Positions 3,605 to 52,392 of a DNA stretch of 64,000 bases are shown one piece after another (position 1 is the stretch's first letter; each line of letters opens with the position of its first letter). The DNA is from Dehalococcoidales bacterium (lineage in GTDB: Bacteria; Chloroflexota; Dehalococcoidia; Dehalococcoidales; BS750m-G39), in assembly GCA_034419075.1 (NCBI GenBank), contig DAOULR010000022.1, forward strand, positions 2,598-66,597, read 5' to 3'. A program made the translations under genes and the position numbers. The notes beneath the pieces are model-generated. The model did not search any database and was not told the origin of the DNA. It saw only the letters and a program-made list of their open reading frames with translations.

Positions 3605-5173
3605 ATGGTTATAACCGAGTTTCTTGACCTTTCCGCCCTGCTCGTCCCCGAGAGGACGGTCATCGCCTTTGAGGGCAGGCGCTACAGCTACGCCCAGCTT
3701 AGGGAGAGGGTAAACCGCCTGGCCGATTCGCTAAATAAAATAGGCCTGGAAAAGGGAGACCGGGCAGCCATCCTGGAGGTCAACTGCAATGAATATGTGG
3801 AGGCCTGTTTTGGGGTGGTGAAGGCGGGTGGTATCTTTGTGCCCTTAAACTTCCGCATCAGGGAGGACGAGCTGATATATCTGGTCAATAAAGCCGAGCC
3901 CAAAATTCTCTTCGTCGGCAGCCGCTACGCTGATATGGTAAATAGCGTCTGTTCTAAACTGTCCTCGGTGGAGCATTTGGTTATCATCGGGGGCAAGCAT
4001 GAGGAAATATCAAGCTATGATGAGCTTATTGCCTCCGGTTCGGCGGAAGACAAGACCTTTGCCGAGCTAAAAGATGAGGATGTGGCCATGCTTATCTTCA
4101 CTGCCGGGACTACTGGCTTCCCCAAGGGAGTTCCCCAGGACCACAATGCCTACAGCACCTATGTACTGACCAATGTTGACCCCCCCGATATGGAGGCGCC
4201 GCCGGAAACCAACGTTCTGGTAATGCCCCTCTACCACGTGGCCGGGATGCAGGCACTGATGGCGGCTATCTATGGGGGCCGGACTATTGCTTTGATGCGG
4301 CAGTTTGACGAAAAAGAGTGGTTCGAGACAGTGCAGCGGGAGAAGGCCACCCGGGTGATGGTGGTGCCGACCATGCTCAAGCGCATCGTGGACTACCCCG
4401 ACTTGGCTAAATACGACTTCTCCAGCGTGCGGGTAATAACCTATGGCGCCGCCGCCTGTCCCTACGAGGTTTTAAAGAAGACTATTGAGCGCTTTCCGGG
4501 GCGGGCGCTGATAAACGCCTTCGGCGGGACGGAGACCTCTTCCACCATAGCCGCCCTGAGGGCCGAAGACCAGGTAATCACTGGGAAAGAGACCGAGGCG
4601 GGGAGAGAGAAGAAGCTAAAGCGTCTGGCGACTTCTATCGGCTTGCCAATGGATGACGTTGAAATCCAGGTCAGGGATGAAAAAGGCCAGGAATTGCCCC
4701 CTGAGCAGCTAGGGGAAATCGTGGTGCGGGGGCCGAGGATAATGAAGGGCTACTGGAAGGATGAGGAGAGGACGGAGAAGGCCTTTACCGCCGACGGCTG
4801 GTACCGCACCGGAGACATGGGCTATAAGGACGAGGAGGGTTATATCTACCTTGCCGGACGGGGTGACGACGTTATCGTTCGGGGTGGTGAGAACATCGGC
4901 CCCGACGAGGTGGAGAGCGTCCTCTCCACCCACCCCAAAATTGAGGAGGCGGCCGTAATCGGAGTCAAGGATGTGGAATGGGGCCAGCAAGTGCGGGCTG
5001 TGGTCCGGCTCAAAGAAGGACAGACCGCCAGTGAGCAGGAGATAATTGATTTCTGCCGTACCCACCTGGCCAGCTTCAAGCGGCCTACCTCGGTGGTTTT
5101 TATTACCGGGGAGTTGCCTAAGACTGCCACCGGCAAAACCCTGCGGCGCGAGCTGCGCGAGAAGTACGGGTAG
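3605..5173 (+). CDS. AMP-dependent acyl-CoA synthetase/ligase
   Basis: 522 aa. AMP-binding motifs FTAGTTGFPKGV, GWYRTGDMG, RGGENIGPDEVE and C-terminal GKTLRREL. Confidence 0.85.
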   Translation: MVITEFLDLSALLVPERTVIAFEGRRYSYAQLRERVNRLADSLNKIGLEKGDRAAILEVNCNEYVEACFGVVKAGGIFVPLNFRIREDELIYLVNKAEPKILFVGSRYADMVNSVCSKLSSVEHLVIIGGKHEEISSYDELIASGSAEDKTFAELKDEDVAMLIFTAGTTGFPKGVPQDHNAYSTYVLTNVDPPDMEAPPETNVLVMPLYHVAGMQALMAAIYGGRTIALMRQFDEKEWFETVQREKATRVMVVPTMLKRIVDYPDLAKYDFSSVRVITYGAAACPYEVLKKTIERFPGRALINAFGGTETSSTIAALRAEDQVITGKETEAGREKKLKRLATSIGLPMDDVEIQVRDEKGQELPPEQLGEIVVRGPRIMKGYWKDEERTEKAFTADGWYRTGDMGYKDEEGYIYLAGRGDDVIVRGGENIGPDEVESVLSTHPKIEEAAVIGVKDVEWGQQVRAVVRLKEGQTASEQEIIDFCRTHLASFKRPTSVVFITGELPKTATGKTLRRELREKYG

Positions 5174-5309
5174 GCTTAAATTTTGTTCGGGCAGGCGACG
5201 GAGCTCAAAGACCACCGGGTTTTGGGCATCGGGGTAGGCAACGGTGGTTAATTCTAGGAAGGAGCGGCTTCACCAAAGTCCAATAAATGGAAGTATGACG
5301 TCTGAATAG

Positions 5310-5543
5310 AGAACTGAAATCCGGAGCTTTGTAAGAGAGGTCAGGGTAACCGGTGACGAAGCGACCCTGACTTACTCAATGCCTCTCCTACCGGAAAAAG
5401 TGGCTATTGAAAAAGAGAGAGTTCTACCTACCGTACAGTATGGTGGGCCTTGGTTGACAGTTCCCGAACTTTTCTTCGAGAAAAAACAACTGATTCCAGC
5501 TCTACAGCAGCTGATTTTGTCCTATAGTAGACCCACTGGTTAA
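5310..5543 (+). pseudogene. 3'-terminal remnant of a serine-recombinase-type gene (no start codon, about 77 codons)
   Basis: Open frame after TAG at 5307-5309. Translation ..FVREVRVTGDEATLTYSMPLLPEK..ERVLPTVQYGGPW.. parallels the C-terminus of the intact recombinase at 52880-54391 (..LYVKEGKVTKVELNSPF..SESVLSGGRYRT). Both share the TGGTGGGC string at the GG codons. Confidence 0.45.
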
Positions 5544-5575
5544 CTTTAGTCCATCTAAAGCATTTAGTCAACAAC
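5439..5575. repeat. 137-bp direct repeat, copy A (left of Pho regulon)
   Basis: Hand alignment with 13083-13219: no indels, 19 mismatches, first 47 nt identical. Confidence 0.9.
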
Positions 5576-5675
5576 AAAAGATGGATTGTTTAAGTCACTT
5601 TGTGGCGGATTGTTATATTGCTTATCTCGACATTTGATAGACCGCGTCTTTGGCTTTATACTATCATTAGAGCTA

Positions 5676-6359
5676 ATGGCCAAAATTCTGATTGTCGAAG
5701 ACGACCGCAACCTGCTGGACACCCTCAAATACAATCTGCGTAAAGAGGGCTACAGCGTAGTCACGGCTGTTGACGGCGCCGAGGCTCTTGATGTCGCCCG
5801 CCGGGAGAAGCCCGACCTCATCGTCCTCGACGTGATGCTCCCCAAGCTGAGCGGCTTCGAGGTCTGCCGCATCCTGCGGAAGGAGATGACCGTCCCCATC
5901 CTGATGCTTACCGCCAAGGACGAGGAAGTCGACAAGATAGTCGGGCTGGAGATTGGCGCCGATGATTATATGACCAAGCCCTTCAGTATGCGGGAGCTGC
6001 TGGCCCGCTTAAGTGCCATGCTGCGCCGGGCCGACATGGCGGTCCCGCCAGCTGAGGCAGAGTCCCTTAAGGTCGGCGAGCTGGAGATTGACGTTGCCCG
6101 TCACCAGGCTTTCCTCCGGGGCCAGCCCCTGGAGCTCAGCCCCAAAGAATTCGAGCTGCTCCTCTTCCTAGCCCGAAACAAGGGGTTTGTCTTCAACCGC
6201 GAACAGCTCTTGGATAAGGTTTGGGGCTATGACTACGCTGGTGAGACGCGGACGGTGGACGTCCATATACGGTGGCTGAGACAGAAAATCGAAACCGACC
6301 CCGCCAAACCCCGGTACCTGCTTACGGTGAGGGGGGCGGGTTACAAGCTGGAAGGCTAA
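5676..6359 (+). CDS. phoB: OmpR-family response regulator, phosphate regulon (PhoB/PhoP-like)
   Basis: Start moved to ATG 5676 ([10 protein letters not shown]). Receiver domain plus winged-helix output. Abuts the kinase gene and the pst operon. Confidence 0.85.
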
Positions 6360-6360
6360 T

Positions 6361-8097
6361 ATGTTCCGTAGCATTCAATGGCGCCTTACCTTTTTCTTCG
6401 TTCTACTCATCGTGGTCAGTATGGGCGCTCTCGGCGTCTATCTGGTCAGCTCTACCCGCAACTCCCAGCTCGACAGCCTGCGCTCTCAATTGGAGAACGA
6501 AGCCAAAATCACCGCCGAGGCCAGCCTGCCTGGATTTCTCGGTCAGGATGAAGACGCCGACCTTGACGCTCTGGCTAAGAGGCTGGGAGAAGAGATTGAC
6601 GCCCGTGTCACTATCATTGCGGTGGACGGGGTGGTGTTGGGCGATTCCGAGGAGGACCCCGCTTTCATGGAAAACCACGCCAACCGCCCCGAAGTCATTG
6701 ACGCCCTGGCGACGGGCGTTGGCGAGAGCACTCGCTACAGCGTTACCCTGGGGCAAGAGATGATGTATCTGGCCGTGCCCATCTCCTACCAGGGCGAAAT
6801 CTTGGGCATAGCCCGCGTCTCGCTGGCGCTGACCACTGTGGAAAGCCTGGCCCACCGGGTGACGTTGAGCATTATCATCGCCATGGCGATAGCCGCCGTG
6901 CTGGTCATTCTGGCCGCCTGGATTATCGCCCGCATCACCACCGGGCCGATAAGGGATCTTACCGCCGCCTCAAAAAGAATCGGCTCCGGGGAGCTGGGGC
7001 GGAAGATAACCATAGCCGCCAAGGACGAGGTGGGGGAACTGGCCCACGCCTTCAACGAAATGTCGGCCAGGCTTAAGGAATCGGTGGAGGAAATCTCCAA
7101 AGACAGGGCCAGGCTGGCTACCATCCTGGACAACATGGCCGACGGCGTCATTATGACCGACACCGAGGGCAATGTCTCGCTGGCTAACCAGACGGCGGAG
7201 AAGCTTTTTAGGGTTAAGGAAGTAGAGAATAAGCCGCTCATCGAGGCGGTGCGTGACCACGAGGTCGACGAGTTACTGAGGCTTTGCCTGAAAACAGGCC
7301 AGACGCAGGCCGTTAACTACGAGTCGGGCACGTCGAAACGCTACCTGCGGGCTATCGCTATCCCCATCGCTCATAGCGGCGTCCTTCTCCTCTTCCAGGA
7401 CCTCACCGAGCTTATAAAGCTGCAGACGACCCGGCGCGAGCTTATCGGCAACATATCCCACGAGCTCAGAACGCCCCTGGCCGGTATCAAGGCCATGGTG
7501 GAAACACTGAGCGGCGGCGCTGTCGACGATAAAAAGGCAGCCCGCGACTTCCTTACCCGCATTGACGGCGAGGTGGAGCGTTTGACGCAGCTAGTGAGCG
7601 AGCTGACCGAGCTTTCCCGCATCGAGACGGGTAAAGCCGAGCTGAGGTTGGAACTGGTGAACCTGAACCAGCTAGCAGAGGAGGTTATCAGCCAGCTCAG
7701 CCCTCAGGCGGAGAGACAGAAGCTGACCCTAGGGAAAAAACTCGCCGCCAGGCTGCCCAAGGTCAACGCCGACCGGGCCCGGGTGCGTCAGGTAATCACC
7801 AACCTGGTGCACAACGCCATCAAGTTCACCCCCGAGGAAGGGAAGATAACCATTACCACCAGGGCGCTGGAAGGCACCGTCGGCGTTGACATCGCCGACA
7901 CCGGCATCGGCATCCCCGAAGCCGACCTGCCCCATGTCTTCGAGCGCTTCTATAAGGGGGACAGGGCCCGCTCGGGGGCGGGCACGGGCATGGGGCTGGC
8001 TATCGCCAAGCATGTCGTCGAGGCTCACGGCGGCAGAATTTGGGTGGAGAGCGAGGAGGGGAGGGGCTCTACCTTCAGCTTTAGCCTGCCGCTCTAA
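6361..8097 (+). CDS. phoR: Phosphate-sensing histidine kinase (PhoR-like)
   Basis: 578 aa. TM segments, HAMP/PAS-like region, H-box ISHELRTPL, HATPase G-boxes ([14 protein letters not shown]). Confidence 0.85.
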
Positions 8098-8191
8098 AAT
8101 TTTAACCAAAATTTAACAAGGCCTTAAACCGTCCTTAAAGTCCAGCCGCTAGACTGGTAATGGATGAATAGGACAACAGGTTTAAGGCTTT

Positions 8192-8659
8192 TTGTTAGTA
8201 AAGGAGGTGAAAGAAAGATTGAAGAAACTGACACTGGCACTGGTTGCCCACGACGCCAAGAAAGAGGCTATGGTGCGGCTGGTGAAGGCGCACCGGGAAG
8301 AGCTTTCGGGGCTGGAGCTTACGGCTACCCGAAGCACCGGCCGTCTCATCCAGGAGAGGACGGGGCTGAAGGTGCGGTTGCTGGAGAGCGGCTCTATGGG
8401 CGGCGACCAGCAGGTCGGCGCTCTGGTGGCTAACGAGACCATCAAGGCGGTGATTTTCCTGCGCGACCCGCTTACGGCGCACCCCCATGAACCGGACGTA
8501 TCGGCACTGTTGCGGGTCTGTGATGTGCACAACGTGCCCCTGGCCACCAACCTGACCACCGCCGAAGCCGTTCTTCACCTTATCGCCGAGCACTCCGAAG
8601 CCTTAGGCGAAAACAAAGCGGCAAGTCATATTGAAAAAATGACCGCCGCTAGAATATAG
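8192..8659 (+). CDS. mgsA: Methylglyoxal synthase
   Basis: LALVAHDAKK...GGDQQVGALV...FLRDPLTAHPHEPDVSALLRVCDVHNVPLATN matches the MGS-like domain. Start codon uncertain. Confidence 0.8.
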   Translation: MLVKEVKERLKKLTLALVAHDAKKEAMVRLVKAHREELSGLELTATRSTGRLIQERTGLKVRLLESGSMGGDQQVGALVANETIKAVIFLRDPLTAHPHEPDVSALLRVCDVHNVPLATNLTTAEAVLHLIAEHSEALGENKAASHIEKMTAARI

Positions 8660-8689
8660 ATTTCAGGATAATCAAAAGGAGGAAACAAT

Positions 8690-9598
8690 TTGTTTAGCAA
8701 GCCAGTCAAAAAGTGGTTCGTGTTACCGCTAGCGCTGGTGATGGTAGCTGCTATCGCCATGACCGGCTGCAATGGTAATAACGATTCGGGAAACGGGGAC
8801 GGGCTTTCAGGTTCGTTCAACATCGTCGGCTCCAACACGGTGGAGCCGCTGAGCGCGATCTGGGCGGAGGAATTTATGGCCATGCACCCCGGCGTGAGCA
8901 TCGCCGTCAGCGGGCCCGGCTCCGGGGTGGGCATTGCCTATCTGATTGACGGTACCACCGACATCGCTCAGGCATCGCGGCAGATAAAATCGGCCGAGAT
9001 TGAGGCGGCTCAGGCCAACGGGATAAACCCCTACGAAATCCAGGTCGCCACCGACGCCCTGTCCGTGATAGTGCACCCCTCTAATCCGGTTTCCGAGCTG
9101 ACCATAGCCCAGATTTCGGCTATCTTCACCAACCAGATAACCAACTGGAGCGAGGTCGGCGGCAACGACGCTGAAATCGTGGTCATCTCTCGCGACACCA
9201 ACTCGGGCACCCACGTCTTCTTCAAGGAGCACGTGGTGCAGATGGCGGGCCTGTCCACCGAGGATACCAGCCTTGAGTATGGCCCCGACGTGCTCTTCCT
9301 CCCCTCCACCAAGCAGGGGGTTGACGAAGTGGCTCAAAATCCCAACGCTATCTTCTATCCGGGGCTGGGCTACCTGACCGATGAGGTGAGGCCGCTGGCC
9401 ATCAAGCGGACGGCCAGTGACGCGGGCGTTCTGCCCAGCGTGCAAACTGCTTTAGACGGCACGTACCCCATCGCCCGACCATTGCTCTTCTACACCGACG
9501 GTGTACCCACTGGCGCCATCAAGGCTTTCATTGACTACTGCCTATCCGCCGAGGGTCAGGCCAAGGTAACCGAAGTCGGCTACGTACCGCTACAATAG
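8690..9598 (+). CDS. pstS: Phosphate ABC transporter substrate-binding protein
   Basis: 302 aa. Signal peptide with Cys (MTGCNG). GSGVG and RDTNSGT phosphate-binding motifs. Alternative (TTG) start. Confidence 0.85.
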   Translation: MFSKPVKKWFVLPLALVMVAAIAMTGCNGNNDSGNGDGLSGSFNIVGSNTVEPLSAIWAEEFMAMHPGVSIAVSGPGSGVGIAYLIDGTTDIAQASRQIKSAEIEAAQANGINPYEIQVATDALSVIVHPSNPVSELTIAQISAIFTNQITNWSEVGGNDAEIVVISRDTNSGTHVFFKEHVVQMAGLSTEDTSLEYGPDVLFLPSTKQGVDEVAQNPNAIFYPGLGYLTDEVRPLAIKRTASDAGVLPSVQTALDGTYPIARPLLFYTDGVPTGAIKAFIDYCLSAEGQAKVTEVGYVPLQ

Positions 9599-9641
9599 AA
9601 AACCCTATTTGAAATAAATAGGCGAAAGGAAAACTTGCCCC

Positions 9642-10574
9642 ATGCTGCAGCGGGGAACCATCGCCGAGGTTGACCTTGGAAAAGGTCTCCGGCGGCGGTG
9701 GCGTTTAGGTGAAAGGTTTATCGAGGGCTGGGTCTTTCTGACCGGCCTGCTGGCTATCGTCGTCCTCTTGGGCATCATCGCCCTCCTGCTCAAAGAGGGG
9801 CTGCCCGTTTTCTTTTACACGCCTCCCTGGGAGTTCTTCTTCGGTACCCAGTGGTACCCCGTCTCTGAGCCGCCCACCTTCGGCATCATGCCCTTCTTCG
9901 TTTCCACGCTCTGGATTACCCTAGTCGCCACCGCCATCTCGGTGCCCGTCGGCGTTGCCGTCGCCGCCTACCTGGCCGAGGTTGCTCCCGACAGAATAAG
10001 GGAGACGGTCAAGCCCATAATTGAGATACTGGCCGGCTTTCCCTCGGTGGTGATGGGCTTTTTGGGGCTAATGCTGCTCTCGCCGCTGGTGCAGAGCGCC
10101 TTTAACCTTAATACCGGCCTTTGCGGACTGACGGCGGGCATTATGCTCTCGCTGATGAGCCTGCCCATCATTATCAGCGTCTCCGAGGACGCCCTGCGGG
10201 CGGTACCCGACGAGTTCCGCCAGGCTTCCTACGCCCTGGGCGCCACCCGCTGGGAAACCATCAGGCACGTCTCCATCCCGGCGGCGCTTTCCGGAATCAC
10301 GGCGGCGGTTATGCTGGGGGTGGGGCGCGCCATCGGCGAGACGATGACGGTGCTCATGGTGGCCGGCGGCGCCCTGGCCGTACCCGTCTCTCCCACCGAG
10401 CCCATGATGCCGATGACGGCGGCTATCGCCTCCGGTATCGGTAACGCCGTGCGCGGCGGCCTGCAGTACCGGGCGCTTTTTGCCATCGGTCTGATTCTAT
10501 TCATTCTCACCCTGGGGGTTAATATCGTCGCCGACCGCGTCTTAGAGCGCCAGAAGAGGAAGTTCGCCCGATGA
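9642..10574 (+). CDS. pstC: Phosphate ABC transporter permease PstC
   Basis: 310 aa polytopic protein. EAA-type loop (ALGATRWETIRHVSIP). Confidence 0.85.
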   Translation: MLQRGTIAEVDLGKGLRRRWRLGERFIEGWVFLTGLLAIVVLLGIIALLLKEGLPVFFYTPPWEFFFGTQWYPVSEPPTFGIMPFFVSTLWITLVATAISVPVGVAVAAYLAEVAPDRIRETVKPIIEILAGFPSVVMGFLGLMLLSPLVQSAFNLNTGLCGLTAGIMLSLMSLPIIISVSEDALRAVPDEFRQASYALGATRWETIRHVSIPAALSGITAAVMLGVGRAIGETMTVLMVAGGALAVPVSPTEPMMPMTAAIASGIGNAVRGGLQYRALFAIGLILFILTLGVNIVADRVLERQKRKFAR

Positions 10575-11443
10575 GCATGAGAGCGGGAAGCATAGCCAGG
10601 CGACAGACATCACAGCGGGCCGCTTTCGGATTGCTGACGGCGGTCACGGCTATCGTGGTCATCGTCGTGCTGTCCATAATCGTAATCATGATTATCAGCG
10701 GCGGCGAAGCCATCAGCTGGGATTTCCTCACCCAGGCGCCGTCGCAGGCGGGGAAGGCGGGTGGCATCTTCCCAGCCATCGTCGGCACCTTCTACCTTAT
10801 GCTGGGCACGATAATCTTCGCCCTGCCCATAGGGGTGATGGCGGGGATATACCTCACCGAGTACGCCCGCGATAACTGGCTGACCCGTCTCATCAACCTG
10901 GCTATAGTCAACCTGGCCGGGGTGCCCAGCATCGTCTACGGCCTTTTCGGGCTGGGCATATTCGTCCTCGCCTTCAATTTCGGCATCTCGCTGCTTTCGG
11001 CTAGCCTGACCCTGGCCTGCCAGGCGCTGGCCATGACCATAACCACCTCAAGGGAAGCGATTTTATCCGTACCCAAGGAATACCGCGAGGGCAGCCTGGC
11101 CAGCGGCGCCACTAAATGGCAGACGGTCAGGCACATCGTCCTGCCTCAGGCTAGCCCTGGCATAATTACTGGGGCGGTTCTGGCCATGAGCCGCGCCGCG
11201 GGGGAAACGGCGCCGATACTGGTGGTGGGGGCGGCCTTTCTCCTGCCCGCGCTGCCTCATTCTCCCTTCGACCAGTTCATGGCGCTGCCCTATCATTTGT
11301 ACACGGTAGCGGCTCACGTCCCTGGCATTCCCGACAGCACAATGTGGGGTGTAGCCCTGGTGCTGATGGCGGTAGTCCTGTCCTTTAATATCCTGGCCAC
11401 CATCATCAGGCTGCGCGCCCGACAGCGGAGGTACAGCTCGTGA
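10571..11443 (+). CDS. pstA: Phosphate ABC transporter permease PstA
   Basis: 290 aa. [18 protein letters not shown] loop. 4-nt overlap with pstC. Confidence 0.85.
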
Positions 11444-12258
11444 ATATGAAATTAAGCACAGATTTGGTGGGCGAAGCGCCCGCATGCAAAAAGACCAGGT
11501 TGGGCGTCAGCCAGCTCAACCTCTTCTACGGCGATTTTCAGGCGCTGCGCAATATCACCCTGGATATACCCGAGTGCGCCATCACCGCCATCATCGGGCC
11601 TTCGGGGTGCGGCAAGTCTTCCTTTCTGCGCGTTTTCAACAGGATGAACGACCTCATCACTGGGGCCAGGGTGGAAGGGCGCATCGAGCTTGACGGCATC
11701 GATATCTACGCTAAAGATATTGACGTGGTCGAGCTGCGCAAGAGGGTAGGCATGGTCTTCCAGAAGCCCAACCCCTTCCCCATGTCCGTGTTCGAGAATG
11801 TGGCTTACGGCCCCCGACGGCATGGCCGCCATAACCGCGGCGAGCTTGAGGAAATCGTAGAAAAGAGTCTGCGGCAGGCAGCGCTGTGGGAGGAGGTCAA
11901 GGATAAGCTGGGGCAGTCGGCGCTGGCTCTGTCGGGAGGGCAGCAGCAAAGGCTCTGTATCGCCCGCGTATTAGCCGTTGGGCCTGAGGTCATCCTGATG
12001 GACGAGCCCTGCAGCGCCCTCGACCCTGTAGCCACCCTAAAAATCGAAGACCTGATGAGAAGCCTGGCCGATAACTACACCATCATCATCGTTACCCATA
12101 ATATGCAGCAGGCGGCACGGGTATCGGATATGGCCGCCTTCCTGATGATGAAGAAGGATAGAGCTGGCGTGCTGGTAGAATACGGCGCTACTTCCGATAT
12201 ATTTACCAACCCCAAGGATAAGCGTACCGAGGACTATATCACGGGGCGGTTCGGATAA
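11440..12258 (+). CDS. pstB: Phosphate ABC transporter ATP-binding protein PstB
   Basis: Walker [10 protein letters not shown], signature LSGGQQQRL, Walker B ILMDEP. Confidence 0.9.
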
Positions 12259-12277
12259 AAGCCAAGGAGGTGCCACA

Positions 12278-12946
12278 ATGGAGATAAGAACGACCTTCCA
12301 CAAGAAACTGAGGGAAATCCAGGACGACGTCCTGGCCATGGGGAGCATGGCCGAAAAGGCGGCGGCGGCTTCGGTCAAAGCCCTCAAGGAGAGGGACGTA
12401 GCTAAAGCCCGGCAGGTAGTTGCCGACGACCCTAAAATAAACAGGAAGCGCTTCGACATCGAGGAGAAGTGCGTCCAGCTTATCGCCACCCAGCAACCTA
12501 TGGCCAGCGACCTGCGCGCCATCATCTGCGTCCTCAATATCATCACCGACATCGAGCGCATCGGTGACCACGCCGAGGGTATCGCCAAGATTGTGGTTAT
12601 GATTGGTGACGAGCCACCGCTGAAACCGCTTATCGACATACCGCGCATGGCGGAAAAGGTAAACGACATGCTGCACCACAGCCTGGACGCCCTGATTAAC
12701 CGCGACGCCGCTGCCGCCCGCAAGATTGCCGCCGAGGACGACGAGGTCGACCAGCTCTACGACCAGGTCTTCCGCGAGCTGCTGACCTTCATGGCCGAAG
12801 ACCCGAAGACCATTACCCGCGCCACCCGCCTCATCTGGGTGGCGCACAACCTGGAGCGCAGCGCCGACCGCGTGACCAATATCTGCGAGCGGGTGGTCTA
12901 TATGGTGACGGGGAAGATGGAGGAGATAGGAGCCTCAAAGTACTAG
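12278..12946 (+). CDS. phoU: Phosphate uptake regulator PhoU
   Basis: 222 aa. Duplicated PhoU helical repeats with the E(R)IGDH / ERSADR motifs. Confidence 0.9.
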   Translation: MEIRTTFHKKLREIQDDVLAMGSMAEKAAAASVKALKERDVAKARQVVADDPKINRKRFDIEEKCVQLIATQQPMASDLRAIICVLNIITDIERIGDHAEGIAKIVVMIGDEPPLKPLIDIPRMAEKVNDMLHHSLDALINRDAAAARKIAAEDDEVDQLYDQVFRELLTFMAEDPKTITRATRLIWVAHNLERSADRVTNICERVVYMVTGKMEEIGASKY

Positions 12947-13082
12947 TCTGAAGAATGAGTTGCTCGTAAACTAGAATTAGTTTACTATCGGGTAATTAAA
13001 ATACCAACCAACAAGTAAGAATTACAGATTTTCAGACAAACAGAATACCTAATTAGCTTGGCAATTGGGTAATATTATTACC

Positions 13083-13219
13083 TATGGTGGGCCTTGGTTG
13101 ACAGTTCCCGAACTTTTCTTCGAGAAAAAGCAACTGGTTCCAGCTTTGCAGCAGCTGCTTTTGTCCTGTCAAAAACCCACTACTTAACTTTAATTCATCT
13201 GAAGAATTTCGTCAATGAC
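13083..13219. repeat. 137-bp direct repeat, copy B (right of Pho regulon)
   Basis: See copy A. Retains the same reading frame and the same TAA position as copy A. Confidence 0.9.
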
Positions 13220-17233: not shown

Positions 17234-18028
17234 CTACTCGAGTTCACTTTGACTTCGTATTTTCTTCATAATTGACCGTCGCCCCAAGTAAAAATTGGTA
17301 GCACTGCTGTCAGCATTCCGAGCTTTCTCAAGCACTTCTTGAATTTTTTGTTGGTCGGCTCCTTCCTTTTCCAGTCTATACGCCTCATGTAAGTAGGGCA
17401 GAGCCGGGCTCAATTCATCTGGAAAGGGAGTTTTAATTGAATCTTCGAATACTCTCTGCCAATCATGACGGGCGTAAGATCTGGTAACTTCACCGCCTTG
17501 TCGGTAATTAACTACGTCTCTGGAGGATTGTAGTCGCCTCCCTGCAGGTGAGCTAGGCCTATCTGAAGGTACTTCAACTGATTGTTCCAGAGTTGTGTTT
17601 TCTAGTTCCCCTTTTCCTTCAATTACCCAACCACTCGGAACATAATCGGGCGGTATTTGGTATGCCTCGTCAGAGATGCGAACCCACAACACCCTCGATA
17701 TTTTAAATGTTCTCTGCGCACTTCGATAGTGACAATAGGCATCAAAATATTCGCTCCCGAGACCGTAAATGTTGATATCCCTCACTTTTATCGCTGGTTC
17801 CCCAGGCATTGGGTTGCCAGTTTCATACTCCATCGTTACACGAAGCTTTCTTGTGTATCCTAATCGGAGTAACTCAATTGTTTTGCTCTTTGTAACCTGA
17901 GCTTTGCCGGAGAATTCGGCAGTAGTCAGGTGACGAGATGCGTTTTGAGAAGGTCTTCTTCTTTGACTAAGCCAAATCACTAGAGTTACGAGGGCAACTA
18001 ATAGAATGACAATCCAACCCATTTCCAA
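17234..18028 (-). CDS. Membrane-anchored WYL-like domain protein
   Basis: N-terminal TM helix (GWIVILLVALVTLVIWL). Core ..VRDINIYGLGSEYFDAYCHYRSAQRTFKISRVLWVRI.. resembles the WYL domain (aromatic-x-L...RxFrxxRI). Likely ATG start at 18022. Confidence 0.6.
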   Translation of the reverse strand: MEMGWIVILLVALVTLVIWLSQRRRPSQNASRHLTTAEFSGKAQVTKSKTIELLRLGYTRKLRVTMEYETGNPMPGEPAIKVRDINIYGLGSEYFDAYCHYRSAQRTFKISRVLWVRISDEAYQIPPDYVPSGWVIEGKGELENTTLEQSVEVPSDRPSSPAGRRLQSSRDVVNYRQGGEVTRSYARHDWQRVFEDSIKTPFPDELSPALPYLHEAYRLEKEGADQQKIQEVLEKARNADSSATNFYLGRRSIMKKIRSQSELE

Positions 18029-18042
18029 TTATCTCCATTGCC

Positions 18043-21000
18043 TCAAAGAGGGCGAGTGTACCGACATTGGTTCTCTGTGTCCTTGTATCCAGAGCACCCT
18101 AAAAATACTCCTCTTCGGCCCCACCTAATTTCCATCTCTCTTCCGCATTTCGGACAAATCGTAGCATCTGGAATTAGAGCTTGTTTAAGGTCTTCTCGCT
18201 TCACATTTGCAGTTGAATTACACCTTTCACACTTGTAGAATGGCCCAAATCTCCCTCGTGGTATAACCTTCATTTTATGGCCACAATTGCTGCACAATCT
18301 TGAGGGAACCTTGCTCGGATTGATAGCTGGGGATAAACTGTCACCAGCCTCCCCCGGCATTTGCAGCCCACACTCATCCATGACCTGTTTGGTGAAATCT
18401 TCATTCTCCAGACGAAACATAAGTTCCTGCGTGTTCTTGTGCGAGAGCGCGTTTAGGCTGCCGAACCAGACCAGTCGGCCATCTACGACTATCACCTTCT
18501 GGTGCATTGAGGATCGCTGAATTACTTTGGCTCCAATCTGTTCAAGGTAGTTGAGCATTTTCTGGATTTCGCCATGGTCTGCGGTCCCTTGTTGATGAGG
18601 CGGGCGTGTTACTAATTCCACATTGATGCCTTTCTCCACCTTTGCTCTGAGTAAATCAACATATGTGCTGAGGCGATTCTTTGTGATAAATGGGCTCATA
18701 ATAATGATATATCGCCCGGAATTTTCCAAATCGTATCGGAGCCCAGAATGAAAATCATCCTCTGTCCAAAACGAACTAACCGCGCTGCTCTTTTCTTTTA
18801 AAGGCCAGAGTGTTTCCCGTGCTTGCCGTACCGCTTGGTCAGCGTAACCTGGCACCAGTTGGTCAGCCGCAAATGTTGGAAGTGGGGTAGATTCATCGAA
18901 TAGCACCTTGCTTAGTGACCACTCCCTATTTAATCGGGATTGTAGAAATGACAGGTTAGCAATGATAGCCAGCTTCTTTTTAGCTCGGCTGCAAGCAACA
19001 TTGATTAGACGTGCACCTGCTGAATCATCGACGTCTTCGGAATCTATCTTACCTTTAAGGAGCTTACCTATACGAAGACCTGTGCTATCTACGAGGTCGC
19101 ATATTATTAGTTCACGTTCACTACCTTGGAAACGGTGGACATTTGAGACCGTTACTTTATCTTTCAGTAATGAATCAATTTCTACCAAGGCCTTTATTAG
19201 ACGTGTCTGGGCTTTGTAAGGCGTTATTATTCCGATATCGGTGAAATTTCGAATCGCACTTTGGCATAGTTTTACTGCCAGAACAGCGTGGTAAAGATTA
19301 AATCTCGAATAACTACTGGTCCAGCTGCACCACGGGTCTATTGCAGATGTATCATACACACCAACACATGTGCCAGGACAGGGTTGGTATGATCTTACTC
19401 TAGGTTCCCCAGAAATGCCGTCTCGTAACTTGTCATTATAGAAAACGCTACTCACTATGGCTCTTATCTCTGGCTGCATCCTATATTGAGTTCTTAGCAT
19501 TACCATCGGGGAGTTCCCCATCTGCTCAAGTTCCGATTCTTTATCTATGCCTGCAGCCACATATATATCTCTACGCAACCACTCTTTAACTCTGCTATCA
19601 TCGCTCAAGGCTATAGGTGCCAATTGGCGGAAGTCGCCAGCAATGGTGATAGACCTCGTGGCCAAACTACACACCCAGTAGAGTGCCGGTATCCCGGCCA
19701 TACTGGCCTCGTCACAAACAATGGTGTCAAATTGCCTACCATATACCTCGTTCATGGTGCATGTTCTGGCAAGCGTAGTTGCTATTAACACCGCCTCATC
19801 TATTATCTGCTGCCTCATTTCTTCGATTTGCCACTCCAACTCAGTTATTTGGGTACGCAAATCTTCAATTTTTGCCCGTATGCCGGCAATCTCGCCTTCG
19901 AGAGTATCAGGTAATAAGGATTCCTGCTTTAGCTTACCCTCAATTTCGTTTACTTCAACGCGAAGTCTATTCAGTTTGCTTGTTGATTCCTTGAGATTTC
20001 CCTCCACTTTAGATTTTTGTTCAATCAACTCATTACGTTTTACCGCTAGATTGGAAATAGAGTATTCTATTCTGCTAATCGACATTCCTCTAAGGAACCT
20101 CGCGATACCTGACATCGCCTTTGTTTTCTGAAGACGGTTTTCTTCCTGCTCAAACTTCCCCGTTACACCAGATATCTTATCTCGTAAAGCCTCTATGGAA
20201 CTTTCCAACTCAGTATGAGAAGCCTCTTCTTGAGCAATTAGCTTTTTCGATGCTTCCCATTTCTCCAGTTGGCTTCTGAGTGCCTGTAATGTCGTAAGTC
20301 TGGTCTCCGTGTCGGTCAATTGCGCACGTAACTCAGAAAGTTGCTCTCTTAAAGGCCCACTCTTTCGCTCCGTGATTTTATCAAGATTGAGATTATCATC
20401 ATCTCCAATTTCTGAGATTTGAGGCGTGCCGAGCCTTAGGATACGCCCTTCTCGATAATGTTCGGTTTCCTGCAGCGGCTTCAAACAAGCTATCAGTGCC
20501 TGATCGATGGCAACGTTGGTATTAGCAGTGAGCAAAACACTCCGTCCGCACTGTATCATGCTTGCTACAGCAACTCCTACAGTGGTAGTCTTTCCAGTGC
20601 CTGGAGGACCCCATATATAACAAATCTCGCTCCCCAGGGCTTGTCGAATGGCTTTTTGCTGGTCTTCATTTAGTTTACCCCATTGCTCTTGTAGGTTTTG
20701 CCCTGGAATGAAAGACTCATTGATTTGGTATTGGAATTGTTTGCGTCTCAAGCATTTTTCGGCGATTATACAAGAAGCATCCTGTAAGGTATCAAGGCGT
20801 TCCGACAAACGTTCGAGAAGGTAATATGGCTGTGCTAGTATACGAGCTGACGGGACATACTCTCCCAGATCACTTTCTATCGCAACTAATATCTGGTTTC
20901 CTGAAACTCCAACAATATGGCCAGATGCGTCTGAGCTCGCTGTACGTACTAATACCGGAGTTTCATCAAAGGCGCCTGATAGAGTTGGGTCATCTAAGAT

Positions 21001-21135
21001 GAAGCTATATACGTATAGCGGTCCCCTTACCTCGACAAGCCTCCCGGCACGTACATCCCACCTAGCGGCGCCCTTTTTCTTCTGTTCCTCTATTTCAACT
21101 GCAAGGGCGTTTTTAAATTCGTTGATTATGCTCAA
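18043..21135 (-). CDS. SF1 (Upf1/DNA2-like) helicase with coiled-coil insert, C-terminal PLD-family nuclease domain and two topoisomerase-type Zn ribbons
   Basis: 1030 aa. Walker A GPPGTGKTT, DEASM, ~200-aa heptad-rich insert, HQKVIVVD...GSLN (HxK-x4-D PLD motif), CxxC...CxxC ribbons at the C-terminus. Confidence 0.85.
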   Translation of the reverse strand: MSIINEFKNALAVEIEEQKKKGAARWDVRAGRLVEVRGPLYVYSFILDDPTLSGAFDETPVLVRTASSDASGHIVGVSGNQILVAIESDLGEYVPSARILAQPYYLLERLSERLDTLQDASCIIAEKCLRRKQFQYQINESFIPGQNLQEQWGKLNEDQQKAIRQALGSEICYIWGPPGTGKTTTVGVAVASMIQCGRSVLLTANTNVAIDQALIACLKPLQETEHYREGRILRLGTPQISEIGDDDNLNLDKITERKSGPLREQLSELRAQLTDTETRLTTLQALRSQLEKWEASKKLIAQEEASHTELESSIEALRDKISGVTGKFEQEENRLQKTKAMSGIARFLRGMSISRIEYSISNLAVKRNELIEQKSKVEGNLKESTSKLNRLRVEVNEIEGKLKQESLLPDTLEGEIAGIRAKIEDLRTQITELEWQIEEMRQQIIDEAVLIATTLARTCTMNEVYGRQFDTIVCDEASMAGIPALYWVCSLATRSITIAGDFRQLAPIALSDDSRVKEWLRRDIYVAAGIDKESELEQMGNSPMVMLRTQYRMQPEIRAIVSSVFYNDKLRDGISGEPRVRSYQPCPGTCVGVYDTSAIDPWCSWTSSYSRFNLYHAVLAVKLCQSAIRNFTDIGIITPYKAQTRLIKALVEIDSLLKDKVTVSNVHRFQGSERELIICDLVDSTGLRIGKLLKGKIDSEDVDDSAGARLINVACSRAKKKLAIIANLSFLQSRLNREWSLSKVLFDESTPLPTFAADQLVPGYADQAVRQARETLWPLKEKSSAVSSFWTEDDFHSGLRYDLENSGRYIIIMSPFITKNRLSTYVDLLRAKVEKGINVELVTRPPHQQGTADHGEIQKMLNYLEQIGAKVIQRSSMHQKVIVVDGRLVWFGSLNALSHKNTQELMFRLENEDFTKQVMDECGLQMPGEAGDSLSPAINPSKVPSRLCSNCGHKMKVIPRGRFGPFYKCERCNSTANVKREDLKQALIPDATICPKCGREMEIRWGRRGVFLGCSGYKDTENQCRYTRPL

Positions 21136-21141
21136 TGCTGA

Positions 21142-24100
21142 TTACTCCACCGGCCACCCCGGTATCAATTCGTCAATCTCCGTCATCAACCGGATGGTCT
21201 CCTTAAGCGCTACAATGACCTTCTGATAGTGTGCAGAGTCATCGTAGGTCAATATCCTGCCCTTGCGGTCTTTGAGCCATTTCTGAGCAACTTGGTAGCC
21301 GCCGACGTGGAAATCCCAAACTTCTGCCGGCACACCTTCGAAGTACTGTGACTTGTTGATATTGACACGCCGGTTGTTGTCATCGTAGCTTACCTTTTCA
21401 ACCTCGTCGGAGCCGGTGACAGGATAGCGCGTGATGGGCTCACCCAGCGCAGGCGATTCCATGAGGTGCAGGGCTACCAGCTCGGCGCCCTTTGCCGCCA
21501 GCGCCTTGAACAGTTTTTTATCCGAGGTGAGCGGCAAGCGCGGGAAGTCTATCTTTAGAAACTCTGCATACCGGCTGCGGTAGGTAGGCGAGTGGAAGAC
21601 GGCGTAGGCGTAGTTGAAGATATCTTCCGGGCCAAAGGTTTCCTTAAGGTCTCCCCGGCCATCTTCAACAAATTTCAACCCCAGCTTCTCTTGAACAGCC
21701 TTGATGAACTCCGGGTTTAGATTGGGACGGCGTTTACCGCCTTCAAACTGCATCTCGCCTTTGGTGGAGTAAAGGTATAGTGGAAAGAGATAATCTTGCC
21801 CCTTGTTACCGAGATAAAAGGTACCGTGACAATTAGGATGTTCAGAGACCCCGAAATACGAATATTCTCCGCCAACTGTCTGTCGCATGGTGATTAATCC
21901 AAGGTTTTCTCTATTAATAAAATGGGACATTATTTCTGAGCGTGGTCGCCCGAGAAATCCGCTGCTTTTGCCTGTAAAATACGTCCAGCGGAAATCGAAG
22001 GGTCGGTACAAAATAGGGACGACACTCTCTTGCTTAATACCAAAATTCTGGAGATCCCTTTTTGCACTATTGATAGTCCAACCTGAAGTGTCGGGACCGA
22101 GATCAAAGTGCTCACGCGCATCTTCACTATCAAGGTCTGAAAATTTCTTTACCACCTTCAGCATTGTGTCGGCATCATCTTGTATTGCTAACTTATCTTT
22201 TTTCGTTTGAATACCAGAACTATATTGGATGAATACCTTGTTGATTACCGGATAGTAATTATATTCATCGTGAGTTGTGTCATCCATAGGGCAGAAGTAG
22301 AAATATGGCGAATTAACGTTAAGAGCTTCCCATTCGGTGGATTGAATAGAATTTGACTCAAGATACTCATATTTTTCTTCTTTGGGCCCAAACAATTCAT
22401 AATATTTAACACTACAGTCTTTTTCGGATGCTCCGACACTATCGGTTTTCACCATCAATATTATTGTGACTCCCTGTTGGATTGCGAAAACATTTTCATC
22501 AGTGACGTCAGCGGGTACTGATCTAGATGCCATAGTACTTCCATGTAAATTAAGTATATAAATCGAATTAAACGTGTTATACAATGAATATCGCATAACC
22601 CTGCTTGCTATCCCGTCAAGGAAGGAATTATTAATAATAAATCCTATAATACCCTTCCCAGTTTTTTCTATACGCCAATCTGCAAATCTGAGGAATTTCC
22701 ATTCTTCTCTATTGAGGTCGAACTTCTTTTCAGTCAAACCTTCTTTATATTTTTCCAAGAGATCCATAATCCACGCGCCTTCAAAAATGGAGCTTGAATA
22801 CGGCGGGTTGCCCAGTACCACCATTATCGGCTCATCTTTCTTAATCCGGGCGGCGGCGTTGGATTCCTCGGTTATCCACTGGGCAAACAGAGTTTCGGAG
22901 TGCTTGATTGCCTCCTCTAGCGTGTTGGTAAGATAAATACCCAGGCGCTGGTCGCTCTGGAACTCGTAGCCCGTCTCCTGCAGCAAGAGCCCGAGCTTGA
23001 GGTGAGCCACGGCGTAAGGTGCCATAAGCAGCTCGAAGCCGAAGATGCGGGGCAGTAGCTTCTTGGCCACATAGTTATTCCACATCCCTTCCTGACCCGT
23101 GAAAGACTGACGAATCTCGTTAACTACCATGTACAGGAAGGTGGCCGTACCCACCGCCGGGTCAAGGATGAGCGCCTTATCATCAGCCAGCCCTTGCGGT
23201 TTGTTGAAGCGGGTCTTCAGTAGGTGGTCGATTGAGCGGACAATGTAGCTGACTACCGGCTCCGGCGTGTAGTAAACGCCGCGCATCTCCCGTACCTTGG
23301 AGTCATAAGCAGTCAGGAAGGTCTCGTAGAAATGCACCACCGGGTCTTCCTTGCCGCTGTGCTTGCCGAAGTCTTTAAGAACCGCCTCCATATTCGCCTG
23401 GTCTAATACCTGTGCTAGGTCGTCGACCAGCCAGGCGATGCGGTCATCAAGGTCAGGTCCGGCGATGTTATTGAAAAGCTTGCGCAGGAACGGGTTTGTC
23501 TTCGGCAGGAGATAGGCGGCATTCTGGCGGGTAAAGTTCTTTTCCTCCGGGTGCGTGCACCGGGCGGCAAACAGGCCGTAGACGATGGTCTGAGCATACA
23601 TGTCGGCAAACTGCCCTGCAGAGAGGTCGGGAATTAGGTTATCGCGAAATGCCGCTAGCTGCACATGGAGATTACCACTTTTCGGCTCTTTCTCAAAGGC
23701 GTTGACGATAAGCTCTCTAATCATGTGTGCCAGGCGAGCCATTCGTAGCGCCAGTTCTTTCGGTGTGCCAACAGCCTCGGCTTTGTGAGCGAGAAAATTA
23801 CCAAGCAGCTCGACAACTGACTGAGCTCCATTGCTGTCGCGCTTGACTTTGCCATCTTTAGTTAGCGTGCCCAAACGTGCCGAAAATCGACGTTTGCCGT
23901 CTACATACCAGCGGAATTCGAGGTAATCAGTCAAGATGAGGTTGGTGAGCGGAGCAAGGTAACGCTTGAATCTTTCCCCGTCCGGCCCTTTCCCGCGCTC
24001 AATATCGTCCAGGCTCTTACCAACATCCTTGGCCTCTATATAGCCAACTTTAAGAGCACCCTTGGTAACCAGAAAGTCAGGGGCACCACATGCAATTCGT

Positions 24101-24267
24101 CGAGGCTCGTTGGTGGCGGTGATTCCCTCAGCCAGACTCTCCACCAGAGCTTCCAGCGCAGAGCGGTGGGTATGCTCGGTAGAATCGCCGGTGGCGAGTT
24201 TCCTCTCAATGGAATGTATGTAGTTTTGCACTAGCTTCACGTTATTTGTTATTTCTTCTCGGTTCAT
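21142..24267 (-). CDS. Type IIG-like restriction-modification enzyme (PD-ExK nuclease + gamma-class N6-adenine methyltransferase + C-terminal specificity region)
   Basis: 1041 aa. N-terminal GAPDF..x12..GYIEAKD (PD...ExK), motif I LDPAVGTATFL, motif IV GNPPY. The C-terminal VWDFHVGGYQVAQKWLKDRKGR block is known from type ISP/YeeA-like enzymes. Confidence 0.8.
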   Translation of the reverse strand: MNREEITNNVKLVQNYIHSIERKLATGDSTEHTHRSALEALVESLAEGITATNEPRRIACGAPDFLVTKGALKVGYIEAKDVGKSLDDIERGKGPDGERFKRYLAPLTNLILTDYLEFRWYVDGKRRFSARLGTLTKDGKVKRDSNGAQSVVELLGNFLAHKAEAVGTPKELALRMARLAHMIRELIVNAFEKEPKSGNLHVQLAAFRDNLIPDLSAGQFADMYAQTIVYGLFAARCTHPEEKNFTRQNAAYLLPKTNPFLRKLFNNIAGPDLDDRIAWLVDDLAQVLDQANMEAVLKDFGKHSGKEDPVVHFYETFLTAYDSKVREMRGVYYTPEPVVSYIVRSIDHLLKTRFNKPQGLADDKALILDPAVGTATFLYMVVNEIRQSFTGQEGMWNNYVAKKLLPRIFGFELLMAPYAVAHLKLGLLLQETGYEFQSDQRLGIYLTNTLEEAIKHSETLFAQWITEESNAAARIKKDEPIMVVLGNPPYSSSIFEGAWIMDLLEKYKEGLTEKKFDLNREEWKFLRFADWRIEKTGKGIIGFIINNSFLDGIASRVMRYSLYNTFNSIYILNLHGSTMASRSVPADVTDENVFAIQQGVTIILMVKTDSVGASEKDCSVKYYELFGPKEEKYEYLESNSIQSTEWEALNVNSPYFYFCPMDDTTHDEYNYYPVINKVFIQYSSGIQTKKDKLAIQDDADTMLKVVKKFSDLDSEDAREHFDLGPDTSGWTINSAKRDLQNFGIKQESVVPILYRPFDFRWTYFTGKSSGFLGRPRSEIMSHFINRENLGLITMRQTVGGEYSYFGVSEHPNCHGTFYLGNKGQDYLFPLYLYSTKGEMQFEGGKRRPNLNPEFIKAVQEKLGLKFVEDGRGDLKETFGPEDIFNYAYAVFHSPTYRSRYAEFLKIDFPRLPLTSDKKLFKALAAKGAELVALHLMESPALGEPITRYPVTGSDEVEKVSYDDNNRRVNINKSQYFEGVPAEVWDFHVGGYQVAQKWLKDRKGRILTYDDSAHYQKVIVALKETIRLMTEIDELIPGWPVE

Positions 24268-24272
24268 ATAGA

Positions 24273-27802: not shown

Positions 27803-27858
27803 AAGGTCAAGGAGGTGTCAAGAAAGAGGTTTTGTCTGTCAAGAAGTTATCAAGAACC
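27803..27858 (+). promoter_or_regulatory. Operator copy 2 upstream of the permease gene
   Basis: AAGGTCAAGGAGGTGTCAAGAAAGAGGTTTTGTCTGTCAAGAAGTTATCAAGAACC. Sits 106 nt from ATG 27697. Confidence 0.7.
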
Positions 27859-30329: not shown

Positions 30330-30385
30330 AAGGTCAAGGAGGTATCAAGAAAGTCTTCTTGTCGGTCAAGAAAGTATCAAGAATT
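30330..30385 (+). promoter_or_regulatory. Operator copy 3 upstream of the kinase-regulator operon
   Basis: AAGGTCAAGGAGGTATCAAGAAAGTCTTCTTGTCGGTCAAGAAAGTATCAAGAATT. Sits 141 nt from ATG 30189. Confidence 0.7.
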
Positions 30386-44690: not shown

Positions 44691-44746
44691 CCGATAAAAG
44701 AAAGTAAGCCCTGTGAGCCGACTTTCATCGGCAAACTCACAGGGCT
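44691..44746 (-). terminator. Rho-independent terminator
   Basis: AGCCCTGTGAG...CTCACAGGGCT stem followed on the minus strand by TTACTTTCTTTTAT. Confidence 0.6.
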
Positions 44747-52370: not shown

Positions 52371-52392
52371 CTTTGTTTATGAGGAGCGAGCT

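Follow-up and report, generated by a model that had tools for sequence, protein, structure and literature searches.

Direct repeats around the Pho operon of a Dehalococcoidales bacterium as putative end-modules of tRNA-targeting serine-integrase elements

Introduction

Genomic islands inserted in tandem at the ssrA gene of Dehalococcoides are delimited by short direct repeats of the 3′ end of the target (McMurdie et al., 2011; PMC3146451). Their serine recombinase gene always overlaps the attachment site (att), with the stop codon located in the neighbouring island or in the target, and the authors suggested that the gene might be complete only on the circular form or beside an island carrying "the requisite 3′ gene fragment"; some of the islands do not encode an integrase (PMC3146451). 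These island arrays are the closest precedent for the locus described here, which is situated on a stretch of 64,000 nucleotides from a Dehalococcoidales bacterium (GenBank assembly GCA_034419075.1, contig DAOULR010000022.1, positions 2,598 to 66,597 of the forward strand). This stretch, hereafter the window, to which coordinates refer unless another contig is named, comprises a Pho operon bracketed by two copies of a 137-bp direct repeat, designated X, and a serine integrase gene next to a tRNA-Val gene.

Among the large serine integrases of phages and integrative and conjugative elements (ICEs), the model systems of the phiC31, Bxb1, and SPbeta type have the phage-type attachment site attP outside the integrase open reading frame (ORF), so that the protein is unchanged by integration. 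In SSV1-type archaeal integrases and in the "integration-dependent immunity" of mycobacteriophages, attP is located within a gene, and integration splits or truncates the product and alters its properties. The affected gene of the mycobacteriophages encodes the repressor; both of these systems use tyrosine recombinases. In marine picocyanobacteria, genes for phosphate acquisition are located in genomic islands.

Results and Discussion

The 137-bp repeat and its coding constraint

Positions 5439–5575 (copy A, X_A) and 13083–13219 (copy B, X_B; CTTGGTTGACAGTTCCC…), both on the + strand, align without gaps over 137 nt with 19 mismatches; the initial 47 nt are identical and the first mismatch is found at repeat position 48. 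Similarity of copy A to family members from other genomes extends to approximately 5590. A 29-mer of the repeat occurs exactly twice in the 64-kb window (0 expected from shuffled sequences), and a profile built from 16 family members detected no third copy in the window. As had been claimed in the initial annotation, the two indel-free copies exactly flank the genes from phoB to phoU (alignment and Pfam), the frame containing copy A (5310–5543) has no start codon, and copy B retains the frame and the stop position of copy A (13185–13187). The string said to be shared with a tRNA-derived att repeat was found as well. It is the 8-nt core TGGTGGGC, located at 5441 and 13085 and at the beginning of two copies of the tRNA-Val 3′ end at 54370 and 54447.

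On the evidence of sequence comparison, X appears to be a conserved, integrase-distal end-module of tRNA-targeting serine-integrase elements of Dehalococcoidales. It is composed of the core, approximately 31–33 codons without a start codon of their own, and about 45 nt harbouring a promoter-like site. Because of the missing start codon, X is translatable only as the end of an ORF reading across the core. The core (5441–5448 in copy A, + strand; 13085–13092 in copy B) is common to X and the tRNA-Val 3′ end, since it is identical to the reverse complement of the tRNA sequence …GCCCACCA, and is the presumed crossover region. It is followed in copy A by a putative detached integrase 3′ fragment, PWLTVPELFFEKKQLIPALQQLILSYSRPTG (5449–5543, + strand, stop codon 5541–5543), recognised from its translation and its period-3 conservation, and in copy B by integrase-tail codons up to the stop codon at 13185–13187. 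Of the six reading frames of X, this one alone is open in every copy. Entropy at codon positions 1, 2, and 3 was 0.74, 0.24, and 1.04, respectively (permutation p < 5e-5; 13 codons outside the search pattern), changes are typically synonymous in Leu or Ile codons (e.g., CTA to TTG), and conservation follows a period of three across the family members. By this pattern of variation, X is protein-coding in the + frame, with about 31 codons under constraint at the protein level.

The approximately 45 nt behind the stop codon are also conserved. A consensus scan revealed the promoter-like sites TTGACT-17-TAAAGT in copy A (5543–5571) and TTGACG-17-TAAAGT in copy B (13187–13215), both on the − strand and pointing outward across the core. 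Of the distinct X copies that were scanned, about three quarters carry the sigma-70-like sequence TTGAC(T/G)-17-TAAAGT, with a variable spacer, at an identical offset. Such a conserved minus-strand site, together with the ACCA at the minus-strand end of the element, would fit a small RNA gene or a regulatory repeat similar to repetitive extragenic palindromic (REP) elements, unrelated to recombinases and with a minus-strand transcript ending in …CCCACCA. However, neither copy matched an RNA family in Rfam (gathering and permissive thresholds) or ARAGORN, none of the 27 predicted pairs in the fold of the minus-strand transcript displayed a compensatory change (RNAalifold), and the variation is of the period-3, synonymous type. 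The copy number is low, and X forms the C-terminus of full-length integrases (see below). An RNA gene is therefore already largely refuted and is regarded as highly improbable. The promoter-like site might restore transcription of genes behind an interrupted tRNA; in contigs L005 and L012 (contigs and proteins from other sources are designated here by L and P numbers, respectively), a tRNA-Trp array is located in this position. Alternatively, it might yield an antisense RNA to the integrase gene in the circular form.

An exact 21-base pattern of X was retrieved from three Dehalococcoidales metagenome-assembled genomes (MAGs), with one match each, and from eleven metagenome contigs. In an exhaustive profile search, the X tail was detected in 548 protein clusters (E ≤ 1e-3), nearly all of which are ORFs of 40–150 residues called only because the frame of X is open. 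Since X is widespread in the order but low in copy number per genome, it is not a REP-like repeat. A dispersed repeat of the REP type or of the miniature inverted-repeat transposable element (MITE) type was ruled out by the two copies in 64 kb, the single copy per MAG, the coding-type constraint, and the fusion to integrases; the high-copy repeat without a link to recombinases that the initial annotation had named as a counter-case is thus not what was found. Two scans of viral contigs (exact and degenerate pattern) gave no excised or viral forms of X. In uncultured Dehalococcoidales, in which the boundaries of serine-integrase islands are otherwise hard to call, the X tail offers a simple marker sequence for the far ends of these islands.

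The integrase ORF and the tRNA-Val end

An intact large serine integrase is encoded at 52880–54391 (+ strand; Pfam Resolvase PF00239, E = 1e-32; Recombinase PF07508, E = 2e-7). The genes directly upstream encode an Xre-type HTH protein and an ImmA/IrrE peptidase (51954–52878, + strand). This three-gene module is also found in L029 and L031, and an HTH-ImmA-Int module is present at the loci of two integrases carrying the X tail. A Gp3-like recombination directionality factor (RDF) is encoded at 50358–51425 (− strand; PF18897, E = 1e-48). The integration target is the tRNA-Val(CAC) gene at 54447–54522 (− strand; ARAGORN, Rfam), whose 3′ end is present in two identical 25-nt copies (54369–54393 and 54446–54470, + strand) separated by a 52-nt spacer. 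The 3′ end of the integrase gene (…GAATCTGTCTTGAGTGGTGGGC) reads into the first of them, and its last codons, GGRYRT* (54374–54391), are encoded by a copy of the tRNA-Val 3′ end, which corresponds to the integrated form of the gene. The two 25-nt copies are only 77 nt apart, and the X copies share just the 8-nt core TGGTGGGC with tRNA-Val.

The 120 closest homologues of the intact integrase (62–100% identity), among them members from Dehalococcoides mccartyi, differ in their C-termini. The X tail is present in five of them, clearly in P0308 (529 aa, …SESVLNGGPLWTVPELFFEKKQLIPALQQLLVSHPRPT), P0325, P0364, and P0366 and in a degenerate form in P0411. The ending GGRY.T, which corresponds to antisense tRNA-Val as in the integrase of the window, was found in 14 homologues, and other endings resembling antisense tRNA (e.g., GGAEGIRTPDL…) in 38. 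Two fragments of the same integrase family, P0299 and P0235, are fused to X. As the C-termini consist of either tRNA-antisense residues or the X tail, the integrase ORF crosses the attachment site. X would accordingly represent the detached 3′ end of the integrase ORF, encoding what appears to be the normal C-terminal extension of the family. The similarity between the translation of copy A and the C-terminus of the intact integrase, which had been noted before, is weak when the two are compared directly (E = 1e-4 to 0.014), but close homologues of the intact integrase bear the same tail. In L029 (10001–11569), L030, and L031 (2137–3726), a full-length integrase with the X tail closes an HTH-ImmA-Int module, with unrelated large genes behind it; the ends of these integrases are candidates for intact tandem or attP-type junctions.

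In the mechanism proposed here, the integrase ORF up to "…GG" would be situated at the tRNA end of the integrated element and the last 31–33 codons or so (PWLTVPELFFEKKQLIPALQQLL…) at the other end, inside X. Crossover in or near the 8-nt core TGGTGGGC would leave an integrase ending in a few tRNA-antisense codons, its true tail lying tens of kilobases away. In the attP state, or beside the X of another island, the integrase would end in the X tail; for the excised form of the element in the window, the predicted ending is …ESVLSGG|PWLTVPELFFEKKQLVPALQQLLLSCQKPTT*. The X tail is conserved across elements with different tRNA targets. We tentatively suggest, with somewhat less than even confidence, that integration splits the serine integrase gene across Dehalococcoidales, that the tail is joined only in the circle or beside another island, and that it serves as a built-in sensor of the integration state. 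If so, the integrated and the excised element would produce different proteins, and the tail could be required, for example, for recombination between attP and the chromosomal site attB or for stability.

The arrangement resembles that of the ssrA islands in several respects. Both are found in the same bacterial class, the large serine recombinase gene is located at the target-proximal edge and reads toward the target, and the 3′ end of the integrase gene in the window extends over att, with GGRYRT* falling within the tRNA-Val repeat. In contrast to the ssrA target with its 20-bp repeat, the target here is tRNA-Val, and other tRNAs in other members of the family; no tmRNA gene was found in the window. 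Instead of the six-gene module of the ssrA islands (DsiB, DsiA, RecF-like protein, ParB, Mom, and RNAP-domain protein), HTH, ImmA, a Gp3-like RDF, a DUF3854/primase protein, and an AAA ATPase are encoded. The 3′ fragment, encoded at the far end of the element, is a strongly conserved tail of 31–33 codons under selection, whereas the ends of DsiB were described as divergent. With X, the speculation of 2011 on the "requisite 3′ gene fragment" acquires a definite sequence that can be tested. With the phage and ICE integrases of the phiC31, Bxb1, and SPbeta type, the protein shares the Resolvase and Recombinase domains, the gene for a Gp3-like RDF about 1.5 kb upstream, and integration beside a short core common to the target. 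A predicted attP within a gene is the feature in common with SSV1 and the mycobacteriophages; unlike in these, the enzyme is a serine integrase.

Copy A as a former tandem junction

The DNA in front of copy A contains the remnant of a recombinase gene, comprising the last 60 codons or so of the "…EKEGVLPTVQYGG" family (5262–5440, + strand; tblastn). It matches the recombinase fragments P0007, P0001, and P0018 with E-values of 4e-24 to 6e-35; the match at 5262–5459 (E = 4e-24) runs through an in-frame stop codon at 5307–5309. No N-terminal part is present, as the remnant matches only the C-terminal 60 or so residues of large serine recombinases, and its homologues are annotated as site-specific (DNA) recombinases. 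When the 77-residue frame of copy A was used as a protein query, only short ORFs were matched, which fall into two groups. Members of the first have the left part "…RRAFIRSFVREVRVTGDEAVLTYSMPLLPEKVAIEKEGVLPTVQYGG" in common, are site-specific recombinases where named, and continue with RYRT, RYWT, or RYKTRTCDPLRVKQVL, endings that equal the antisense translation of a tRNA-Val gene; the tail of P0007 matches the antisense translation of the tRNA-Val in the window (54463–54501). The second group has no more than the right part, "GGPWLTVPELFFEKKQLIPALQQLLVSY..PT", in common, behind a variety of unrelated sequences. The two groups indicate that the right part is a separate conserved DNA element, namely X. 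By this comparison, copy A is X fused in frame to the last 60 or so codons of a dead recombinase, a junction that would be typical of tandem islands (or of the attP type), with the 3′ end of an integrase gene, the core, and the X of the next island. The description of the repeat as the tail of a dead recombinase gene is therefore correct insofar as copy A is fused to the 3′ end of a dead serine recombinase gene; the repeat itself is a conserved module found in hundreds of contexts.

Sequences upstream of X and the target tRNA

The 16 nt or so in front of X are always arranged as the reverse complement of a tRNA 3′ end. The 16-mer TGGTGGGCCTTGGTTG precedes X in the window, L002, L007, L013, and L014, the tRNA-Gln-like sequence TGGCTGGCC… in L004, L006, and L008–L011, and other variants in L005 and L012, where X adjoins a tRNA-Trp array. 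Further upstream, many unrelated sequences were found, and the core resembling a tRNA 3′ end is constant. In L008, the sequence left of the core equals the native downstream flank of the intact tRNA-Gln gene in L001, including the hairpin GGTAAT-N3-ATTACC. The order native tRNA flank, core, and X thus corresponds to an attL-type junction.

The 16-mers raise the question of whether both copies in the window are attL-type junctions of an array at another tRNA (3′ end …CAACCAAGGCCCACCA), with the entire 16-mer derived from that tRNA, the crossover at the T-loop, and no connection to the integrase at 52880. Their layout fits a tRNA 3′ end in every subfamily (CCA, discriminator, 7-nt acceptor, 5-nt T stem), and in L005 and L012 X occupies the place of the next tRNA in the tRNA array. 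On the other hand, the Gln-type 16-mers are identical in unrelated contexts and diverge from the tRNA-Gln of L001 immediately after TGGCTGG, which suggests that positions 8–16 travel with X. The remnant fused to copy A is a member of a family whose other fusions are to tRNA-Val, and ARAGORN detected no tRNA of the required kind in the window. We consider a different target tRNA to be rather improbable, even more so than the acquisition of the Pho genes as island cargo, which is discussed below.

Copy B and the 41-kb block

The left flank of copy B (13049–13084, + strand) contains the hairpin GGTAATATTATTACC (13068–13082), ends with …GGTAATATTATTACCTA, and resembles the native tRNA-Gln downstream flank in L001 and L008. 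Its last 20 nt or so are shared with the first of two X copies in L013. From this layout we infer that copy B is an attL-type junction and marks the left end of a block of about 41 kb (13085–54446). Left of the integrase, the + strand contains TGGTGGGC in just three places, namely 5441, 13085, and the interior of pstB, which leaves copy B as the sole plausible left junction of this block. Its right part (31.9–54.4 kb) contains genes for a sliding-clamp-like protein, a primase-like DUF3854 protein, an AAA ATPase, the RDF, the HTH protein, ImmA, and the integrase, followed by tRNA-Val(CAC). The part from 15 to 31 kb, with a lower G+C content, includes genes for a Type ISP restriction enzyme, a helicase-PLD protein, a HEPN/nucleotidyltransferase pair, a permease, and a two-component system. 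No structural phage genes were detected between 34 and 48 kb using PHROGs, and the block is for this reason termed an integrative element rather than a prophage.

The interpretation of the two copies as recombinase- or att-associated scars, as put forward in the initial annotation, is supported by these results. They do not form the attL/attR pair of a single element, because the arm X lies to the right of the core in both of them and the right junction lacks the integrase-side arm. Successive integrations at one site, the other possibility considered at the time, are favoured by the evidence. The locus is probably best explained by a tRNA hot spot at which elements repeatedly integrated and decayed, next to a Pho operon that is itself resident. 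The window would contain the relics of at least two integration events. Copy B, with its tRNA-flank-like hairpin, core, and X, would be the left junction of the block 13085–54446, and copy A a former junction between tandem islands, nearly all of both of which has since been deleted. The Pho operon between the copies would be resident chromosomal DNA and an ancestral neighbour of tRNA-Val.

Several observations weigh against this explanation. The region from 13 to 54 kb is mixed in composition, with 46% G+C in the part encoding defence and two-component systems versus 58% in the replication and integration part. Neither a diverged third X nor a tRNA-Val-type attL was found within 13–54 kb by nhmmer and pattern searches, and with no internal boundary bearing X in this block, the pairing of copy B with the integrase is an indirect one. 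The second 25-nt tRNA-Val repeat and the 52-nt spacer behind the integrase are unexplained by a simple model. The spacer resembles the sequence upstream of the second X of L013 (10640–10683) and a sequence within the ORF P0001; spacer and second repeat probably mark a further insertion that was almost wholly deleted. Of the 16 nt of TGGTGGGCCTTGGTTG before X, only the first eight match tRNA-Val, and if the crossover were located further to the right, the target would be another tRNA outside the window. Relative to tRNA-Val, the Pho operon has the opposite orientation to that in L020 (see below), so that at least one further rearrangement is needed, and its flanks differ in all relatives, which leaves some room for mobility of the operon. 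No relative close enough to show an empty site was recovered, nor one with the left flank of the window.

The Pho operon in relatives

The bracketed genes (5677–12946, + strand, identified with Pfam) form the operon phoB-phoR-MGS-pstS-pstC-pstA-pstB-phoU, with phoB at 5677–6359, phoR at 6361–8097, the gene for an MGS-domain protein (mgsA) at 8219–8659, and phoU at 12278–12946; pstS, pstC, pstA, and pstB are located between the MGS-domain gene and phoU. The operon is conserved in relatives, and PhoR has many homologues with 75–84% identity in Dehalococcoidia. Left of copy A, ordinary metabolic genes are found (ABC permease, corrinoid protein, URO-D-type methyltransferase, cupin, AMP-binding enzyme), and the right neighbour of copy B encodes a metallo-beta-lactamase/LTD (MBL/LTD) protein. 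Seven relatives with DNA flanking the operon were available for comparison (contigs L018–L021, L023–L026, and L028). The operon is collinear in these, with 78–88% nucleotide identity, and the similarity to the window starts at 5603 (L028) or 5631 (others) and stops at the stop codon of phoU (12946). The native upstream region of phoB, delimited by this similarity, extends from 5603 to 5676 (+ strand) and contains the promoter-like sequence TTGATA-17-TATACT (5634–5662; consensus scan).

According to a rival explanation, the segment 5441–13084 is an integrase-less, cis-mobilisable island in a tandem array, with the Pho genes as horizontally acquired cargo that could still move with the aid of a neighbouring integrase. 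In its favour, the segment is bounded on both sides by direct modules of core and X, and island-related sequence is found within about 15–140 nt of the operon on each side. The neighbours of the operon differ in all relatives examined and are often mobile or defence genes (tyrosine integrase, DruA/NurA, methyltransferases), the G+C content of the Pho genes (59%) is above that of the flanks, and integrase-less tandem islands are described in Dehalococcoides (PMC3146451). However, the two ends of a complete island would be formed by X and by the integrase-side arm, whereas the right end of this segment is a hairpin resembling a tRNA flank. In none of the relatives was X found near the operon. 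The G+C content is raised there, too (54–59%, mostly above the flanks); the 59% in the window are therefore a property of the operon and not a sign of recent import. In L020, the identity to the window is similar for the operon (79–81%) and the pilus genes (65–77%), with no sign of recent transfer, and the operon adjoins an unoccupied tRNA-Val. We thus regard acquisition as cargo as unlikely; the mobilised Pho cassette proposed earlier is not supported by relatives in which the operon occurs without X and with the same raised G+C content. The picocyanobacterial islands would be an analogue only if the operon were cargo, and the evidence favours a resident operon.

The arrangement in L020 also bears on the ancestral state. 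In this contig, pilus genes are followed by an unoccupied tRNA-Val(CAC), 230 nt, and then phoB; on the far side of the tRNA, a Big/TIG-domain protein and type IV pilus genes are encoded, as at 55.8–62.4 kb of the window. This indicates that the operon ancestrally neighboured the integration target and that the 41 kb now in between are inserted DNA. Single inversions of the L020 arrangement, including inversion by attP × attB recombination, were considered as well and rejected, because none of them gives two direct copies of X. Over a longer distance, the block of pilus and type II secretion system genes, the TIG/Big-domain protein, and tRNA-Val(CAC) are syntenic between L020 (1179–9080) and the window (54447–62420), except for a gene for a GT2 glycosyltransferase (54898–55683) between tRNA-Val and the TIG-domain gene, which is present in the window only.

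Within the operon, the MGS-domain gene between phoR and pstS is present in L020, L021, L023, and L028 and absent from this position in L018 and L019, indicating that the part from phoR to pstS is variable within the lineage. A gene for a low-molecular-weight phosphatase is located beside the MGS-domain gene in L020 and L021. The closest relative with upstream sequence, L028 (85% nucleotide identity), displays at its truncated end (1–60, − strand) a sequence resembling the T-arm of a tRNA-like gene, GGTCGCCGGTTCAAATC; it precedes the conserved promoter region of phoB by about 80 nt and was not confirmed by Rfam.

Rearrangement at the locus

Rearrangement between copies of X is evident from L013, which has 88% nucleotide identity to the window from 13085 into the MBL/LTD gene. 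It contains two X copies 2.8 kb apart, which enclose genes for a DUF1508/PRC protein and a LuxR-type regulator. In place of the Pho operon, genes for surface proteins and a tyrosine integrase precede the first X, and the left side is unrelated to the window. Copy B combines the left flank of the first X of L013 with the body and right flank of the second; from this mosaic it follows that the window and L013 differ by an X-to-X deletion or insertion. An event of this kind could also occur between copies A and B, since 137-bp direct repeats that match perfectly over 47 nt are substrates for the deletion or amplification of the important operon they enclose. Between about 5 and 54 kb, the window represents a zone of plasticity associated with tRNA-Val, such as is known from Dehalococcoides. 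This accounts for the interruption of short-read assemblies of the species precisely at the Pho operon, where the contigs L015–L017 and L027 start or stop inside X.

Further features of the integrative element

The low-G+C part of the block contains a defence-type cluster (17234–25257), which includes a helicase (AAA_11/AAA_12) fused to a PLD nuclease and a Zn ribbon (18043–21135), the Type ISP restriction-modification enzyme (21142–24267), and the HEPN/nucleotidyltransferase pair (24273–25257). A 54-nt direct repeat rich in GTCAAGAA (85% identity; 27803–27856 and 30330–30383) surrounds the genes for a DUF4118/GAF histidine kinase and an OmpR-type regulator (27921–30189) and may represent operator sites or another small rearrangement scar. 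Unannotated ORFs on the − strand of the integrative element contain, between 40176 and 43942, five copies of a CATCAT-rich 86-nt repeat (62–84% identity), which probably corresponds to a peptide segment rich in Met, Asp, and His that is repeated in small paralogous proteins. A 45-nt repeat, present at 44702–44746 and 45991–46035 (1.3 kb apart), is a G+C-rich hairpin (AAGCCCTGTGAG…CTCACAGGGCT) and looks like a terminator. The hairpin GGTAAT-N3-ATTACC, of which the window has a single copy (13068–13082), is located at 3746–3766 and 3818–3838 in L001, at approximately 555–575 in L008, and at 7768–7790 in L013. In the Dehalococcoidales genomes examined, it is repeatedly found in intergenic regions and shortly behind tRNA genes, and it may be a lineage-specific terminator or processing signal.

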